This document shows, in pieces, positions 1 to 9,579 of a stretch of DNA of 29,893 bases. Location of the stretch: the UHGV virus genome UHGV-0172517. One strand, given 5' to 3'. The stretch's first letter is position 1. Each line of letters begins with the position of its first letter. The stretch comes from a virus. The notes under the pieces are model-generated. The model was given only the letters and a program-made list of their open reading frames with translations. It searched no databases and was not told where the DNA came from. Made by a program: the position numbers and the translations under genes.

Positions 1-155
1 AAGATCACTACGGAGTGCCCGTCAGAGTCATTCGTTGGGAGCCGGAAACACAACGAGTTATCTACCTCCGCGAAGGCTATGAGCATGAGTGCTTCAGCCC
101 GCTCGAACAGTTTCGTCGTAAATTCAGGGAAATAGAGGTCGGTCATGAGCACTAA
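1..155 (+). CDS. 3' end of an upstream CDS (partial, start outside window); function unknown
   Basis: Frame 3 reads through to a TAA at about 153-155 with a plausible globular C-terminal peptide (…[44 protein letters not shown]) and overlaps the next start by ~11 nt, a coupling-type overlap. Frame 1 is an alternative ending near 135. Confidence 0.3.
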
Positions 156-1086
156 ATTAACCGGCTATGTATGGGATGGTTGCGCTGCGTCAGGCATGAA
201 ATTATCCAGCGTGGCAATTATGGCCCGCCTGGCTGATTTCAGTAATGACGAAGGTGTGTGCTGGCCATCAATTGAAACCATTGCCCGTCAGATTGGCGCG
301 GGGATGAGTACCGTCAGAACGGCTATCGCACGGCTGGAAGCAGAAGGCTGGTTAACGCGTAAGGCGCGTCGCCAAGGTAACCGCAATGCGTCGAATGTTT
401 ATCAGCTTAACGTTGCGAAGCTTCAGGCAGCGGCATTTTCTCAACTGTCAGATTCTGACCCGTCAAAATCTGACGCATCAAAATCTGACCCGTCAAAATT
501 TGATGCGTCGAAATCTGGCAAAAAAGCGGTTTTTCACCCGTCAGAATCTGGCGGGGATCCGTCAGTAAAATCAAAACATGATCCGTCAGATAAAAAAACT
601 TCTCGTCCGGACGCTTCGCAACCGGACACGCAGACGGCTGAACAGGAGTTTTTAACTCGCCATCCTGATGCGGTTGTATTCAGCCCTAAAAAGCGCCAGT
701 GGGGAACGCAGGATGATTTGACCTGCGCACAGTGGCTCTGGAAAAAAATCATCGCCCTGTACGAGCAAGCCGCCGAATGTGACGGCGAGGTGGTTCGTCC
801 CAAAGAACCGAACTGGACAGCCTGGGCAAACGAAATTCGCCTGATGTGTGTGCAGGATGGTCGTACTCATAAACAAATCTGCGAGATGTACAGCCGCGTC
901 AGCCGCGATCCGTTCTGGTGCCGTAACGTGCTCAGCCCGTCGAAGCTGCGGGAAAAATGGGATGAGCTTTCCCTGCGCTTATCGCCGTCCGTAAGCACGT
1001 ACACCGAAAAACGCGAAGACCCGTACTTCAAATCCAGTTACGACAACGTGGACTACAGCCAGATCCCGGCAGGATTCAGGGGGTGA
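145..1086 (+). CDS. O: Lambda O-like replication initiator (distinct N-terminal DNA-binding domain, repeat linker, O-type C-terminal domain)
   Basis: 313 aa ORF with SD-like GAGG upstream. C-terminal segment WANEIRLMCVQDGRTHKQICEMYSRVSRDPFWCRNVLSPSKLREKWDEL closely resembles the lambda O C-terminal domain as I recall it (WANDIRLMRERDGRNHRDMCVLFRWACQDNFWSGNVLSPAKLRDKWTQL). The central SDPSKSDASKSDPSKFDAS linker is encoded by iteron-like DNA repeats. Confidence 0.8.
   Translation: MSTKLTGYVWDGCAASGMKLSSVAIMARLADFSNDEGVCWPSIETIARQIGAGMSTVRTAIARLEAEGWLTRKARRQGNRNASNVYQLNVAKLQAAAFSQLSDSDPSKSDASKSDPSKFDASKSGKKAVFHPSESGGDPSVKSKHDPSDKKTSRPDASQPDTQTAEQEFLTRHPDAVVFSPKKRQWGTQDDLTCAQWLWKKIIALYEQAAECDGEVVRPKEPNWTAWANEIRLMCVQDGRTHKQICEMYSRVSRDPFWCRNVLSPSKLREKWDELSLRLSPSVSTYTEKREDPYFKSSYDNVDYSQIPAGFRG
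447..600. repeat. Candidate replication origin: iteron array inside the O-like gene followed by an A/T-rich tract
   Basis: Seen directly: ~15-bp direct repeats tctgacccgtcaaaa / tctgacgcatcaaaa / tctgacccgtcaaaa / tttgatgcgtcgaaa, each with internal dyad TGAC..GTCA, then aaaaaagcggttttt and further CCGTCAG repeats with A-runs. Architecture parallels ori-lambda, which lies within gene O. Confidence 0.6.
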
Positions 1087-1088
1087 TC

Positions 1089-1577
1089 ATGAGTCTGTTA
1101 AATGACGTTCAGAAATTCATTGAAGCCCATCCGGGGTGTACTTCCGGAGACATTGCGGATGCTTTTGCAGGTTACTCACGGCAGCGCGTTCTGCAGTCAG
1201 CAAGCAAGTTACGTCAGAGTGGGCGTGTGGCTCACCGTTGTGAAGGAGATACACGCAGACATTTCCCGCGCCTGACTGAGAGAGCGCAGGAACCGGAACC
1301 ACAACCAGTTCGTGAAACCAGACCTGTGCGCAATTTCTATGTCGGCACTAACGATCCCCGGGTGATTTTGTGCCTGACCCGCCAGGCGGAAGAACTGGAG
1401 TCCAGGGGCTTATACCGTCGTGCTGCAACGGTGTGGATGGCGGCATTCCGTGAAAGCCACTCCCAGCCAGAACGAAACAATTTTCTGGCGCGTCGTGAGC
1501 AGTGTTTACGGAAAAGCAGCAAGCGCGCTGTATCGGGTGATGAGTGGTATCTGTCAGGGAATTACGTGGGGGCTTAA
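1089..1577 (+). CDS. Putative regulator: Ren-like winged-helix N-terminus with PerC-family-like C-terminal motif
   Basis: ORF track gives 1083..1577 from GTG; ATG at 1089 with AGGGGG upstream is the more likely start. C-terminal LESRGLYRRAATVWMAAF…RREQCL matches the PerC/Pch signature (LE.GLWRRAA..W … CL) as I recall it; N-terminus patterns like lambda Ren. Occupies the position after O where lambda has P and ren. Confidence 0.5.
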   Translation: MSLLNDVQKFIEAHPGCTSGDIADAFAGYSRQRVLQSASKLRQSGRVAHRCEGDTRRHFPRLTERAQEPEPQPVRETRPVRNFYVGTNDPRVILCLTRQAEELESRGLYRRAATVWMAAFRESHSQPERNNFLARREQCLRKSSKRAVSGDEWYLSGNYVGA

Positions 1578-2230
1578 TGAGTAATAAATATTGCCAGACG
1601 CTGGTGGAACTGCGGAACAAACCAGCCCATGAACTGAAGGAAGTGGGTGATCAGTGGCGCACGCCGGACAACATTTTCTGGGGAATTAACACCCTGTTTG
1701 GCCCGTTTGTTCTGGATCTGTTCACTGACGGTGATAACGCCAAATGTGCTGCGTATTACACGGCGGAAGACAACGCGCTGGCGCATGACTGGTCAGAACG
1801 TCTTGCGGAGCTTAAAGGGGCTGCCTTTGGTAATCCCCCATACAGCCGCGCCAGTCAGCATGAGGGGCAATACATCACCGGCATGCGTTACATCATGAAA
1901 CATGCCAGTGCCATGCGTGATAAGGGTGGGCGCTATGTTTTCCTGATCAAAGCTGCCACCAGCGAAGTGTGGTGGCCGGAAGATGCAGATCATATTGCTT
2001 TTATTCGCGGGCGTATTGGTTTTGAACTGCCTGCCTGGTTTATCCCGAAGGATGAGAAGCAGGTGCCGACAGGCGCTTTCTTCGCTGGTGCTATTGCTGT
2101 TTTCGACAAGACCTGGAAGGGACCGGCAATTAGCTACATCGGGCGCGATGAACTTGAGGCATGTGGTGAGGCGTTTCTGGCGCAGGTTCGCCAGCAGGCG
2201 GAAAAACTGGTCAGGGAGATGGCGGCATGA
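1577..2230 (+). CDS. Phage N6-adenine DNA methyltransferase (Dam-like, orphan)
   Basis: NPPY catalytic motif (AAFGNPPYSR) typical of N6-adenine MTases. ATG at 1577 overlaps the upstream stop (TAATG); the ORF track's upstream Met at 1544 is probably not the start. Confidence 0.85.
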   Translation: MSNKYCQTLVELRNKPAHELKEVGDQWRTPDNIFWGINTLFGPFVLDLFTDGDNAKCAAYYTAEDNALAHDWSERLAELKGAAFGNPPYSRASQHEGQYITGMRYIMKHASAMRDKGGRYVFLIKAATSEVWWPEDADHIAFIRGRIGFELPAWFIPKDEKQVPTGAFFAGAIAVFDKTWKGPAISYIGRDELEACGEAFLAQVRQQAEKLVREMAA

Positions 2231-2553
2231 CGACGTTAACTCAATGCCAGCAGCAGGTGCTGGATATGCTGATTTCTTATCAGAAAGAACGTGGCTTCCC
2301 GCCAACCAATCAGGAGGTGGCAACCATGCTGGGATACCGTTCGGTGAATGCAGCGGTGGAGCATCTTCGCGCACTGGAGAAAAAAGGCGTCATCACGATA
2401 AAGCGTGGCGTGGCCCGGGGGATAACGCTTCATACCGCGGTGAAGGACGACGACAGCGAGGCGGTCGGGATTATCCGCGCACTGCTTGCCGGTGAGGAAA
2501 ACGCAAGGCTGCGTGCAACCCACTGGTTACATGAGAGGGACCTGAAAGTATGA
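2227..2553 (+). CDS. LexA-like winged-helix DNA-binding protein (LexA N-terminal domain only, no S24 peptidase domain)
   Basis: 108 aa; QQVLDMLISYQKERGFPPTNQEVATMLGYRSVNAAVEHLRALEKKGVITI resembles the LexA N-terminal DNA-binding domain ([50 protein letters not shown], from memory). ATGA start/stop overlap with both neighbours. Confidence 0.75.
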   Translation: MTTLTQCQQQVLDMLISYQKERGFPPTNQEVATMLGYRSVNAAVEHLRALEKKGVITIKRGVARGITLHTAVKDDDSEAVGIIRALLAGEENARLRATHWLHERDLKV

Positions 2554-2939
2554 AGCTGATCCTGCCTTTTCCGCCCAGCGTGAACACGTACTGGAGACAC
2601 CCCAACAAAGGGGCGTTTGCTGGTAAGAGCCTGATAAGCGCGGCGGGGCGAAAATTCCAGAGCGCGGCGTGCGCAGCAATAGTTGAGCAGTTACGTCGTC
2701 TGCCGAAACCAACGTCGGCACCTGCTTCAGTGGAGATCGTGTTATTTCCTCCGGATAACCGGATCCGCGATCTGGACAACTATAACAAGGCGCTGTTTGA
2801 CGCCCTGACCCACGCGGGTGTGTGGGAAGACGACAGTCAGGTGAAAAGAATGCTGGTGGAGTGGGGACCGGTTATCCCGGAAGGGAAGGTCGAGATCACT
2901 ATCAGTAAGTACGAGAAAACGGCGGGTGCAGCCGCCTGA
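2550..2939 (+). CDS. rusA: RusA-family Holliday junction resolvase
   Basis: 129 aa; N-terminal LPFPPSVNTYWRH and the DLDNYNKALFDALT acidic motif are typical of RusA; size matches (~120-130 aa). Start overlaps upstream stop. Confidence 0.85.
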   Translation: MKLILPFPPSVNTYWRHPNKGAFAGKSLISAAGRKFQSAACAAIVEQLRRLPKPTSAPASVEIVLFPPDNRIRDLDNYNKALFDALTHAGVWEDDSQVKRMLVEWGPVIPEGKVEITISKYEKTAGAAA

Positions 2940-2958
2940 TCAAGAGGAGAAACGAAGT

Positions 2959-3768
2959 ATGAATAATCTGATGGTCATTGATGGTATTGAAGTTCGTCGT
3001 GATGCTTATGGGCGTTACAGCCTGAACGATCTGCATCGCGCAGCAGTAGCATCTGGTGCAAATGCCAGAACCAAGGAGCCGGGGAAGTTTCTTTCCAGCC
3101 AACAAACTGTTGAGCTTGTTCATGAATTGACCAACACCCAGAATTTGGGTGTTGACCCGGTGAGTGTGATTCATGGGGGAAATGAACGGGGAACTTATGT
3201 CTGCAAGGAACTGGTGTATGCCTATGCAATGTGGATCAGCCCGTCATTCCATCTGAAGGTGATCCGTACTTTCGATATGGTAACCAGCGCACCGGAAAAA
3301 TTATCCGGACAGGCTGCTGACAAGATGCAGGCTGGTGTGATTCTGCTGGACTTTATGCGCCGGGAGTTAAACCTGTCTAACTCATCTGTGCTTGGGGCCT
3401 GTCAGAAACTCCAGGAGGCTGTTGGCTTACCGAATCTGGCACCGCGCTATGCCATTGATGCTCCTGCTGATGCACACGATGGCTCAAGTCGCCCGACACT
3501 GTCACTGAGTGCACTGCTGAAACAGTATGGTATCCGCCTGACGGCTAATCAGGCATATCACCAGATGGTGAAGCTGGGGATCGTCGAGCAGCGCGAACGA
3601 TACAGCCGTACCGCGATTAACAACATCAAAAAATTCTGGTCGCTGACAGCGAAAGGCTGCATGTTCGGCAAGAACATCACCAGTCCCGCAAATCCGCGCG
3701 AGACGCAGCCGCATTTCTTCGAATCCCGATTCCCTGAGCTGTTAAAGCTGCTCGATACCGTTCATTGA
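2959..3768 (+). CDS. KilA-N domain protein (Roi/antirepressor-like)
   Basis: ATG at 2959 preceded by AAGAGGAGA SD; the ORF track's upstream Met at 2926 is unlikely. N-terminal ~100 aa (MVIDGIEVRRDAYGRYSLNDLHRAA…GGNERGTYVCKELVYAYAMWISPSFHLKVIRTFD) fits a KilA-N DNA-binding domain. Confidence 0.8.
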   Translation: MNNLMVIDGIEVRRDAYGRYSLNDLHRAAVASGANARTKEPGKFLSSQQTVELVHELTNTQNLGVDPVSVIHGGNERGTYVCKELVYAYAMWISPSFHLKVIRTFDMVTSAPEKLSGQAADKMQAGVILLDFMRRELNLSNSSVLGACQKLQEAVGLPNLAPRYAIDAPADAHDGSSRPTLSLSALLKQYGIRLTANQAYHQMVKLGIVEQRERYSRTAINNIKKFWSLTAKGCMFGKNITSPANPRETQPHFFESRFPELLKLLDTVH

Positions 3769-3769
3769 G

Positions 3770-4765
3770 GTGACCGTGAGAGCACTACTGACCCCTGAAA
3801 TTGCCCCGCGTATGGGGATCGTATTGTTCAGACCAGGTTCAGAGCTGATGCCCCTGTTTATGCAGGGGCGTGTCCTGCTGGAGCCTGAGCCGGAACGTTA
3901 TTCATCTTTCGCCAGTGGTGCCGTTCCGGCGGCATCACAACCGCTGGCGGATGATCCTGCCGTTCGGGCCGTGTTCCGCAATGAGGCAGTGATCCGTCGT
4001 GCTGGTGGAGTGGAATGTCTTGAAAGCTGGTTACTTCGTGAAAAAGGCTGCCAGTGGCCTCATTCCGACTGGCACAGCGAGAACATGACCACAATGCGAC
4101 ACGCTCCGGGTGCAATCCGTCTGTGCTGGCACTGCGATAACCAGCTGCGCGATCAGTTCACGGAACGGCTGGAATCAATGGCAACGGATAACTGTGCCCG
4201 CTGGGTGTTATCTGTTGTGCGCCGTGATCTCGGTTTTGATGATAGTCACGTTGTGACAATGCCGGAACTGTGCTGGTGGCTGGTTCGTAATGACCTGGCT
4301 GATGCCTTACCGGAAAGTGCAGCCCGTAAGGCACTGAGATTACCGAAGCCTGTTGTGCCGTCTGTCACCCGGGAGAGTGACCTTGTTCCTTCGGTTCCTG
4401 CCACCAGCATTATCCAGGATAAAGCGAAAAAGGTGCTGGCGCTGAAAGTGGATCCAGAGTCGCCGGAGTCTTTTATGTTACGCCCAAAACGTCGCCGCTG
4501 GGTTAATGAAAAGTACACGCGCTGGGTTAAGACACAGCCGTGTGCATGTTGTGGAAAGCCTGCTGATGATCCCCATCACCTGATAGGCCACGGTCAGGGT
4601 GGAATGGGTACAAAAGCGCATGACCTCTTTGTGTTGCCTTTGTGCAGAAAGCATCACGACGAGCTGCATGCGGATACCGTGGCATTTGAAGAGATGTATG
4701 GTTCCCAGCTGGAGCTGATATTTCGTTTTATCGATCGTGCGCTGGCAATAGGCGTACTGGCGTAA
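3770..4765 (+). CDS. DUF968 (YdfU-like) protein with C-terminal HNH-like Cys/His motif
   Basis: 331 aa ORF; C-terminus CACCGKPADDPHHLIGHGQGGMGTKAHDLFVLPLCRKHHDELH carries an HNH-like metal-binding pattern; resembles the Qin prophage YdfU family, which precedes Q. Start codon (GTG 3770 versus internal ATGs) is uncertain. Confidence 0.7.
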   Translation: MTVRALLTPEIAPRMGIVLFRPGSELMPLFMQGRVLLEPEPERYSSFASGAVPAASQPLADDPAVRAVFRNEAVIRRAGGVECLESWLLREKGCQWPHSDWHSENMTTMRHAPGAIRLCWHCDNQLRDQFTERLESMATDNCARWVLSVVRRDLGFDDSHVVTMPELCWWLVRNDLADALPESAARKALRLPKPVVPSVTRESDLVPSVPATSIIQDKAKKVLALKVDPESPESFMLRPKRRRWVNEKYTRWVKTQPCACCGKPADDPHHLIGHGQGGMGTKAHDLFVLPLCRKHHDELHADTVAFEEMYGSQLELIFRFIDRALAIGVLA

Positions 4766-4778
4766 GTGGAGAACGAGC

Positions 4779-5531
4779 ATGAACCTTGAAGCCTTACCAA
4801 AATATTACTCCCCAAAATCTCCAAAATTGAGCGATGACGCACCGGCGACAGGCTCAGGTGGTTTAACGATTACGGATGTGATGGCTGCGCAGGGGATGGT
4901 GCAGTCGAAAGCACCGCTTGGGTTTGCCTTATTCCTGGCAAAAGTTGGTGTTCAGGATCCTCAATTTGCGATTGAAGGTCTGCTCAATTACGCGATGGCA
5001 CTGGATAACCCGACATTGAACAAATTGAGTGAAGAAACCCGGTTACAGATCATCCCTTACCTTGTGAATTTTGCCTTTGCTGATTATTCCAGGTCTGCGG
5101 CAAGTAAGGCTCGCTGTGAGCATTGTGCTGGTACTGGATTTCATAATGTATTGCGCGAAGTGGTGAAACACTCCAGAAGCGGGGAATCTGTTATCAAGGA
5201 AGAGTGGGTGAAGGAACTATGTCAGCATTGTCATGGTAAGGGAGAAGTCAGCACAGCGTGCAGAGGGTGTAAGGGTAAAGGTATTGTCCTGGATGAAAAA
5301 AGGACCCGGCTTCATGGCACGCCTGTTTATAAGATTTGTGGGCGTTGCAATGGAAATCGGTTTAGCCGTTTACCAACCACACTGGCGCGGCATCATGTCC
5401 AGAAGCTGGTACCAGACCTGACGGATTATCAGTGGTACAAAGGATATGCAGATGTCATTGATAAACTGGTGACAAAGTGCTGGCAGGAAGAAGCATATGC
5501 TGAGGCGCAATTAAGAAAAGTGACGAGATAA
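4779..5531 (+). CDS. Q: Late-gene antiterminator Q (lambda Q family, QuuQ-like, with extra Zn-binding CxxC motifs)
   Basis: 250 aa; GGAGA SD 7 nt upstream. N-terminus YSPKSPKLSDD…TDVMAAQGM resembles lambda Q (HSPKSPMMSD…TDVMAAMGM, from memory); multiple CxxC pairs. Sits immediately upstream of the lysis cassette. Confidence 0.8.
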   Translation: MNLEALPKYYSPKSPKLSDDAPATGSGGLTITDVMAAQGMVQSKAPLGFALFLAKVGVQDPQFAIEGLLNYAMALDNPTLNKLSEETRLQIIPYLVNFAFADYSRSAASKARCEHCAGTGFHNVLREVVKHSRSGESVIKEEWVKELCQHCHGKGEVSTACRGCKGKGIVLDEKRTRLHGTPVYKICGRCNGNRFSRLPTTLARHHVQKLVPDLTDYQWYKGYADVIDKLVTKCWQEEAYAEAQLRKVTR

Positions 5532-7970: not shown

Positions 7971-8381
7971 TTAGTGCGGAAATATTTGTGTAGTGTTCTG
8001 AATGTTCTCAGTAAAGAGTAATGAATTATCAAAGGTATAGTAATACCTTTTGTTTTCGTGGATATTTGTAATCCATCTGAAAACCCCTGCTGTAGCAAGA
8101 TTTTTCCTGTATTCGTAAAATGATAACTCTCCTGATTTGAATCCTTTTAAGGTGGCTTCTATAAGGCATTTATTTTTTGAAAATCTTACATTTACAACCT
8201 TACCCTGTCCTTTTATTAAAACCGTATTATCGTTTTCAAGAACAAGATGAATATTCTCTGTAGCTAAATAGTAAATGTAATGTGAGACATTGTGACGTTT
8301 TAGTTCAGAATAAAACCAGTGATAGTTTAAATTATTTCGCACTTTATCGAATATTTGTTTAAAAATGGCAACCTGAGCCAT
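7971..8381 (-). CDS. DUF1398 / YbcV-like moron protein (function unknown)
   Basis: ORF track 7971..8396; the second ATG at 8381 has a better SD (GGAAGG) than the first. AT-rich gene on the opposite strand to all phage genes; position between Rz and terminase matches ybcV in DLP12-type prophages. Confidence 0.6.
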
Positions 8382-8437
8382 TGTGGTACCTTCCATGTGA
8401 TATGAGGGGCGTAGTCTGCACGATTATCTAAATTGCT

Positions 8438-8671: not shown

Positions 8672-8844
8672 GAGGTTGTCCCGTATTTAGTGTCGCTGAT
8701 TTGTATTGTCTGAAGTTGTTTTTACGTTAAGTTGATGCAGATCAATTAATATGATACCTGCGTCATAATTGATTATTTGACGTGGTTTGATGGCGTAGAT
8801 GCACGTTGTGACATGCAGATGATAATTATTATCATTTTGCGGGT

Positions 8845-9055
8845 CCTTTCCGGCGATCCGACAGGTTACGGGGCGGCGACCTCGCGGGTTTTCGCTATTT
8901 ATGAAAAATTTCCGGTTTAAGGCGTTTCCGTTCTTCTTCGTCATAACTTAATGTTTTTATTTAAAATACCCTCTGAAAAGAAAGGAAACGACAGGTGCTG
9001 AAAGCGAGCTTTTTGGCCTCTGTCGTTTCCTTTCTCTGTTTTTGTCCGTGGAATG
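8845..9055. other. Phage cos site: cosQ/cosN (GGGCGGCGACCT cohesive-end sequence at ~8870-8881) and the cosB terminase-binding region
   Basis: Seen: …cgacaggttacg|gggcggcgacct|cgcgggttttcgctatttatgaaaaatttccggtttaaggcg… matches the joined lambda right and left ends, ~190 nt upstream of nu1. Confidence 0.85.
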
Positions 9056-9059
9056 AACA

Positions 9060-9579
9060 ATGGAAGTCAACAAAAAGCAGCTGGCTGACATTTTCGGTGC
9101 GAGTATCCGTACCATTCAGAACTGGCAGGAACAGGGAATGCCCGTTCTGCGAGGCGGTGGCAAGGGTAATGAGGTGCTTTATGACTCTGCCGCCGTCATA
9201 AAATGGTATGCCGAAAGGGATGCTGAAATTGAGAACGAAAAGCTGCGCCGGGAGGTTGAAGAACTGCGGCAGGCCAGCGAGGCAGATCTCCAGCCAGGAA
9301 CTATTGAGTACGAACGCCATCGACTTACGCGTGCGCAGGCCGACGCACAGGAACTGAAGAATGCCAGAGACTCCGCTGAAGTGGTGGAAACCGCATTCTG
9401 TACTTTCGTGTTGTCGCGGATCGCAGGTGAAATTGCCAGTATTCTCGACGGGCTCCCCCTGTCGGTGCAGCGGCGTTTTCCGGAACTGGAAAACCGACAT
9501 GTTGATTTCCTGAAACGGGATATTATCAAAGCCATGAACAAAGCAGCCGCGCTGGATGAACTGATACCGGGGTTGCTGA

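Follow-up and report, generated by a model that had tools for sequence, protein, structure and literature searches.

Among the known systems closest to the gene studied here is that of PchA, a PerC-family regulator that binds DNA at many loci, activates LEE1 only where silencing by H-NS, StpA and Hha is present, and lowers H-NS occupancy both in vivo and in vitro (PMC4764244). The divergent proteins PchD and PchE barely activate ler (PMC5931665) and, therefore, membership in the PerC family is no guarantee of activator function. In Escherichia coli K-12, the gene yfdN has been termed "the K12 unique PerC homologue" and was deleted to provide a clean background in ler::lacZ assays (PMC5931665). 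yfdN is also mentioned in screens, in which its overexpression caused glycogen excess and in which it was recovered as a member of a five-gene filamentation-inducing fragment and in a urine-induced fragment, as well as in a predicted interaction network.

Here, we analyzed a yfdN-type gene in the 29,893-nucleotide viral genome UHGV-0172517 (referred to as the window, i.e. the whole stretch of DNA). Sequence comparisons make it near certain that the window gene is an allele of the lambdoid-prophage gene yfdN: YfdN of K-12 (b2357) is 97% identical to the window protein over the full length with 5 substitutions, the gene for gp44 of phage mEp460, which is noted as similar to SfV orf40, is 98.8% identical at the DNA level, and the PHROG family phrog_1324 covers the whole protein (E=4e-78). 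The open reading frame that a previous sequence-only reading had placed at 1089-1577 was recovered exactly, with an ATG at 1089, a TAA at 1575-1577 and 162 codons between the two ends. The gene and its immediate surroundings are laid out as follows:

145-1086, plus strand: upstream gene for an O-like replication initiator (HTH_36; phrog_391)
1078-1083, plus strand: Shine-Dalgarno-like AGGGGG (visible in the sequence itself), 5 nt 5' of the ATG at 1089 and overlapping the final codons of the gene before it
1089-1577, plus strand: yfdN-type gene, 162 aa plus stop codon, PerC family transcriptional regulator
1577-2230, plus strand: downstream gene for a Dam-type N6-adenine methyltransferase (Pfam PF05869, E=1e-45)

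The RefSeq version of the protein has 164 aa and begins at a GTG at 1083; we favor the ATG at 1089 because all distant YfdN homologues start with MSL at the N-terminus. The upstream gene ends with a TGA at 1084-1086, which leaves a gap of 2 nt to this ATG, and yfdN is translationally coupled to the O-like initiator gene. At the other end, the TAA of yfdN and the ATG of the methyltransferase gene overlap by 1 nt.

The gene is already known and, being named, annotated and widespread in E. coli, ordinary. A search of 5426 complete E. coli genomes recovered it in 2674, with the annotation "yfdN: PerC family transcriptional regulator", and RefSeq names the window protein "PerC family transcriptional regulator". 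In addition, 49 phage records match the DNA of the gene at 90-99% identity, including those of mEp460, Stx2a- and Stx2c-converting phages, Shigella phages and the PhiR series. In K-12, yfdN is flanked by the replication-gene remnant yfdO upstream and the truncated methyltransferase gene yfdM downstream. The expectation that a "fusion of this kind" would be unusual did not hold up: the protein is the fixed form of a named family (YfdN, phrog_1324) carried by approximately half of the E. coli genomes.

In the window, the O-like initiator gene is followed by yfdN, the Dam-type gene, a gene for a LexA-like DNA-binding protein, and the RusA, KilA-N, DUF968/HNH and Q genes; the lysis, terminase, tail and lom genes follow after Q. 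Positions 1-3000 are free of promoter-like sites and of terminator-like sites on the plus strand, and the G+C content of yfdN (0.53-0.55) is that of the neighboring genes. The gene had also been read as a regulatory moron. We reject this reading on the operon anatomy and conclude that yfdN is a core gene of the early operon, located in the ren slot, because it lacks a promoter and a terminator of its own, has the same G+C content as its flanks, and is coupled to both neighbors by its start (2-nt gap) and its stop (1-nt overlap).

We compared the position of yfdN in 85 related loci, comprising 80 viral contigs that are all 98-100% identical, and hence non-independent, and further loci including those of distant homologues. 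The gene upstream encodes an O-like initiator in 83 of these 85 loci and the stop-to-ATG gap is 2 nt in 82, while the downstream gene varies (Dam in 56, the LexA-like gene in 27). As for the four distant homologues, one shares an overlap with the end of a gene of the lambda-P family, a second follows the gene for a 353-aa O-like initiator, a third follows a gene for an HTH_36 plus Phg_2220_C initiator, and the fourth, in locus L007, is located directly upstream of Q and after a type I restriction-modification cassette. Thus, the position directly after the replication genes is found in the window and in three of the four contexts of distant homologues, the exception being the homologue adjoining Q. 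In L007, this cassette occupies positions 1394-4551, consists of N6_Mtase plus Methylase_S and is an insertion into the nin region. Homology of the window to mEp460 begins at position 1011, within the 3' end of the initiator gene, and therefore yfdN travels with the part encoding the initiator C-terminus. Searches with Pfam and PHROG profiles from the O-like initiator gene to Q (145-5531) identified no gene for a lambda-P, DnaC or DnaB-type helicase loader or helicase, and the window contains no ren gene.

Other features of the window were recorded alongside. Within the O-like initiator gene, a 15-bp tandem repeat, TCTGACCCGTCAAAA, is present in 4.3 copies at 454-517 and codes for the peptide repeat SDPSKSDASKSD; by analogy to lambda O, the initiator gene probably harbors the iterons of the origin in these repeats. 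The nin-region gene at 2227-2553, the second one after yfdN, encodes a 108-aa protein that consists of a LexA DNA-binding domain alone (PF01726, E=3e-19) and lacks the S24 peptidase domain. A DUF1398 gene on the minus strand (7971-8396) is located between the lysis cassette and the terminase genes, and the minus-strand open reading frames at 8687-8944 and 8961-9500 have no match in Pfam; together, the DUF1398 gene and the minus-strand open reading frames in 8687-9500 may constitute a moron or cargo region. Searches with the PADLOC defence models gave nothing meaningful.

Combining profile searches, alignments and structure models, we assign the following regions to the protein and regard these domain assignments as near certain:

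1089-1274, plus strand: N-terminal winged helix-turn-helix domain (aa 1-62) with H1 at aa 3-13, H2 at 19-25, the recognition helix H3 at 31-44 and a beta-hairpin wing at 47-60
1275-1343, plus strand: flexible linker (aa 63-85) rich in Pro and Glu, of variable length and sequence
1344-1535, plus strand: PerC-like three-helix domain (aa 86-149) with helices at aa 90-105, 109-122 and 126-149; PF06069; AF2 pLDDT 88-94
1536-1574, plus strand: C-terminal tail (aa 150-162), in which the following motif is conserved: L-[SAP]-G-[NHR]-[YF]-[VAI]-G

The PerC assignment is clear. Residues 98-151 of YfdN match positions 5-58 of the 90 positions in the Pfam PerC profile PF06069 (E=1e-9), scoring 39 bits where the gathering cut-off is 22.6 bits. 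Among the PHROG families annotated as "transcriptional activator", phrog_1324 matches the full-length protein and phrog_2608 and phrog_10396 match the C-terminal part alone. A tblastn search with the C-terminal domain identified approximately 160 plasmid-borne "PerC family" genes, the products of which are roughly 32-44% identical to it. In an alignment of two annotated plasmid PerC proteins with the four distant YfdN homologues, the motif AEELExRGL(W/Y)RRAAxxW...R..CL aligns column for column, and alignment columns A15, L18, G22, R26, A27, A28 and C54 are invariant. The PerC signature reported from the C-terminus is, therefore, confirmed, and the proposal of a two-domain small regulator with a C-terminal half in the PerC/Pch family is supported. 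The profile of full-length YfdN matches nothing among the PDB sequences, from which we conclude that there is no solved structure for the PerC family. We also considered and rejected the possibility that the gene corresponds to pchD or pchE of O157 Sakai; those genes are located in a tellurite-resistance island and a P4-like prophage, and are described as smaller Pch variants.

No Pfam family covers aa 1-99 of YfdN. Structure prediction confidently models aa 1-60 as a winged helix of the MarR/ArsR type: the AF2 model of this region has the order H1, beta-strand, H2, H3 and beta-hairpin with pLDDT values of 85-92, and in Foldseek searches SmtB, ArsR, MepR, CzrA and HlyU superpose on it over approximately 60 residues with an rmsd of 1.9-2.9 Å. 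Similarly, a profile of the N-terminal domain matches MarR, IclR and ArsR proteins in PDB at E ~1e-3 (3bpv, 1mkm, 6j05, 1lj9). The recognition helix H3 together with the wing is strongly basic (pI 11.8). Searching 1.84 billion representative proteins with the N-domain profile gave 54 matches only; besides proteins of the YfdN type and fragments of them, these comprise a small number of winged helices that stand alone or in tandem. One protein, P0285 (196 aa), has two tandem YfdN-type winged helices without a PerC domain; this layout resembles the two-repeat arrangement implied by phrog_1687, in which Ren corresponds to the first half and YfdN to the second.

The linker (aa 63-84) is modeled with pLDDT values below 50, and has indels and low conservation in the alignments. 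The tail is also predicted to be disordered (pLDDT <50); however, L155, G157 and G161 are invariant and Y159 nearly so down to 35% identity. Because the tail is conserved yet predicted to be disordered, and is absent from plasmid PerC proteins, these data suggest that it is a candidate short linear interaction (docking) motif. The four distant homologues (35-46% identity) all retain the winged helix, a variable linker, the PerC-like domain and the tail. Judged from these alignments, the two-domain architecture is old and fixed rather than a recent fusion because both domains and the invariant tail persist down to 35% identity.

Starting from the identity of the gene, its family membership, domain anatomy and operon position, as established above, we suggest that YfdN most likely functions as a DNA-binding regulator, expressed from the early operon, whose PerC-like module relieves silencing of the H-NS type, a model that draws on the analogy to PchA and to which we give about an even chance. 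In this model, (i) yfdN, which belongs to the delayed-early rightward operon of a lambdoid prophage of the SfV/mEp460/CPS-53 type and is translated right after the replication initiator, would be expressed together with the replication proteins upon induction or infection, (ii) the basic winged helix (aa 1-62) would place YfdN on DNA, (iii) the PerC module (aa 86-149) would loosen H-NS/StpA/Hha nucleoprotein complexes as PerC/Pch proteins do, such that silenced, i.e. AT-rich and horizontally acquired, phage or host promoters could fire, and (iv) the tail (aa 150-162) would dock a partner. The DNA binding, the anti-silencing activity and the targets of YfdN are, in this scheme, what we infer.

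The N-terminus had been likened to lambda Ren, and this likeness leads to a different reading in which YfdN is a Ren-type anti-exclusion factor in the ren slot that, like Ren, shields the phage against abortive infection by Rex-like systems that resident prophages carry, with the winged helix as the Ren-equivalent part. The shared position as the first gene after the replication genes, the overlap between one distant homologue and the end of a gene of the lambda-P family, and the absence of ren from the window are in agreement with this reading, whereas the homologue located just before Q is not. In the profile comparisons, aa 3-59 of YfdN match positions 13-70 of the PHROG Ren-like family phrog_142 (E=0.02, 16 bits) in register with Ren's own match; two hhalign runs with the N-terminal domain and a Ren family profile both paired aa 5-50 of YfdN with 5-49 of Ren, with a probability of 15% using a shallow profile and of 72% (P=3e-5) using a more diverse one; and Ren and the N-terminal domain have the weak PHROG neighbors 1687, 633 and 19053 in common, although the two match different halves of phrog_1687. 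Similarly, an HMM of the N-terminal domain scores positive for 120 of 120 Ren-family proteins (best 19.4 bits, most 8-12 bits), but with the N-domain profile, MarR, IclR, ArsR and SlyA proteins of known structure reach 18-23 bits, which is equal to or above the best Ren score. BLASTP gave no alignment between YfdN and lambda Ren, and the exhaustive N-domain profile search of the 1.84 billion proteins returned no Ren protein at E<=0.001. Foldseek searches of the YfdN model against BFVD and PDB returned generic winged-helix matches without Ren among the top 50, and the AlphaFold model of Ren (mean pLDDT 48.5) is too poor for a structural comparison. Moreover, the C-terminal 40 residues of Ren are without a counterpart in YfdN, which has the linker and the PerC domain in place of Ren aa 58-96. 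In total, both Ren and YfdN carry small MarR-like winged helices and a specific relationship between the two is possible. Of the proposed Ren-like N-terminus, the fold class and the gene slot hold while a claim to specific Ren homology is not supported, given that generic MarR/ArsR proteins score equally well or better. The outcome named beforehand as refuting the earlier reading, profile searches without PerC or Ren matches, did not occur, since PerC was recovered clearly. Taken together, the earlier observation is confirmed in part and its interpretation supported in part. We consider an anti-exclusion function unlikely.

Alternatively, YfdN could be a replication accessory protein in the P slot that works together with the O-like initiator, e.g. 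by means of a tail that recruits host DnaB/DnaC. The close spacing to an initiator gene (a 2-nt gap in 82 of the 85 loci and an O-like gene upstream in 83), the region between the O-like gene and Q in which we found no helicase-loader family, the co-transfer with the initiator C-terminus and the conserved disordered tail that looks like a docking motif all fit such a function. The 80 viral loci are 98-100% identical, however, and do not count as independent evidence; one distant homologue follows a lambda-P-family gene, so that a loader is already there, another adjoins Q beyond a type I restriction-modification cassette, and transcription control is the only role known for the PerC family. 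We view a function in replication as very unlikely. A further alternative concerns the C-terminal domain, which could act as an ANR-like anti-regulator that binds and inactivates a transcription factor or nucleoid protein without promoter activation by YfdN itself. ANR proteins (Aar/ANR) bind AraC-type regulators and H-NS. The NCBIfam model ANR_neg_reg (NF033650) matches aa 96-142 of YfdN with E=7.5e-5, but with 22.5 bits falls short of the curated cut-off (32), in contrast to the PerC match, which exceeds its own. Foldseek also found a close match to a 60-aa phage "ANR family transcriptional regulator" (TM 0.92, rmsd 0.6 Å, 57 columns), the output being silent on which part of YfdN is aligned, and the model-based link to ANR drawn from it is, accordingly, tentative. 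According to an unpublished observation cited in PMC4764244, H-NS and PchA failed to co-precipitate, which argues against such a mechanism for a PerC-type protein. We consider this reading improbable, to a similar degree as the anti-exclusion function. Finally, elements of these readings can be combined: YfdN could be a modular relative of Ren in which the Ren C-terminus has been swapped for a PerC module, with a role in counter-defence/anti-exclusion or, in phages without a P-type helicase loader, as the otherwise missing partner of the O-like initiator. We regard this combination as rather improbable. If it were true, the invariant disordered tail (L-x-G-x-Y-x-G) would be a docking motif for a host protein, and induction of yfdN could cross-activate H-NS-silenced virulence loci of the host, which is conceivable because the gene is present in approximately half of the E. 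coli genomes, including in Stx2-converting phages.

As a discovery, the gene matters little: yfdN is named, annotated as a member of the PerC family and very widespread, and will not surprise a specialist. The value of the analysis is descriptive and lies in the confident modeling of the N-terminal 60 residues, which are without a Pfam family, as a winged helix, in the two-domain architecture and the C-terminal tail motif that are conserved across the YfdN family, and in assigning yfdN, at the ren position, to the core genes of the early operon and not to the morons. Returning to the model of YfdN as a DNA-binding regulator with a PerC-like anti-silencing module, the presence of yfdN on Stx2a- and Stx2c-converting phages together with its membership in a family that controls the LEE makes its regulatory targets of interest.

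The domains and the context of YfdN can be compared to several known systems. K-12 YfdN in the cryptic CPS-53/KpLE1 prophage has the same neighbors as the window copy, i.e. a yfdO-type replication gene and a yfdM-type methyltransferase gene; CPS-53 is decayed, whereas the window prophage, which has Q, lysis, terminase, tail and lom genes, is lambdoid and apparently complete. Lambda Ren (phrog_142) resembles YfdN in having a small N-terminal MarR-like winged helix with weak in-register profile similarity, and ren and yfdN share their slot behind the replication genes. However, the similarity between the two proteins is not above the generic winged-helix background and is not significant in pairwise comparison, and the C-terminal half of Ren (aa 58-96) is replaced by the PerC domain in YfdN. 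The DNA-binding domains of MarR, ArsR, SmtB and IclR have the H1-S1-H2-H3-S2-wing-S3 topology that is also predicted for the N-terminal domain of YfdN. Compared to these regulators, the YfdN domain is minimal with 60 residues and without their dimerization helices or ligand and metal sites, and it forms a very narrow sequence family (54 representatives in the 1.84 billion proteins). The ANR (AraC negative regulator, Aar-like) family shares with the C-terminal domain of YfdN a short three-helix module with a close predicted structure; ANR proteins are stand-alone proteins of approximately 60 aa, and YfdN falls below the ANR family cut-off.

PerC, encoded by the pEAF plasmid of EPEC, and PchA/B/C, encoded by EHEC prophages, share with YfdN the helix-hairpin signature AEELExRGLWRRAAxxW...R..CL as well as the carriage on horizontally transferred elements. 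PerC and Pch are single-domain proteins of approximately 90-105 aa, whereas YfdN has in addition the N-terminal winged helix, the linker and a distinct conserved tail, and identity inside the shared domain is only 25-37%. Likewise, the genomic settings differ in that pch genes are located near effector loci and yfdN is located in the early operon. LEE1 activation is an established feature of PerC and PchA-C, and YfdN is placed with these proteins by sequence.
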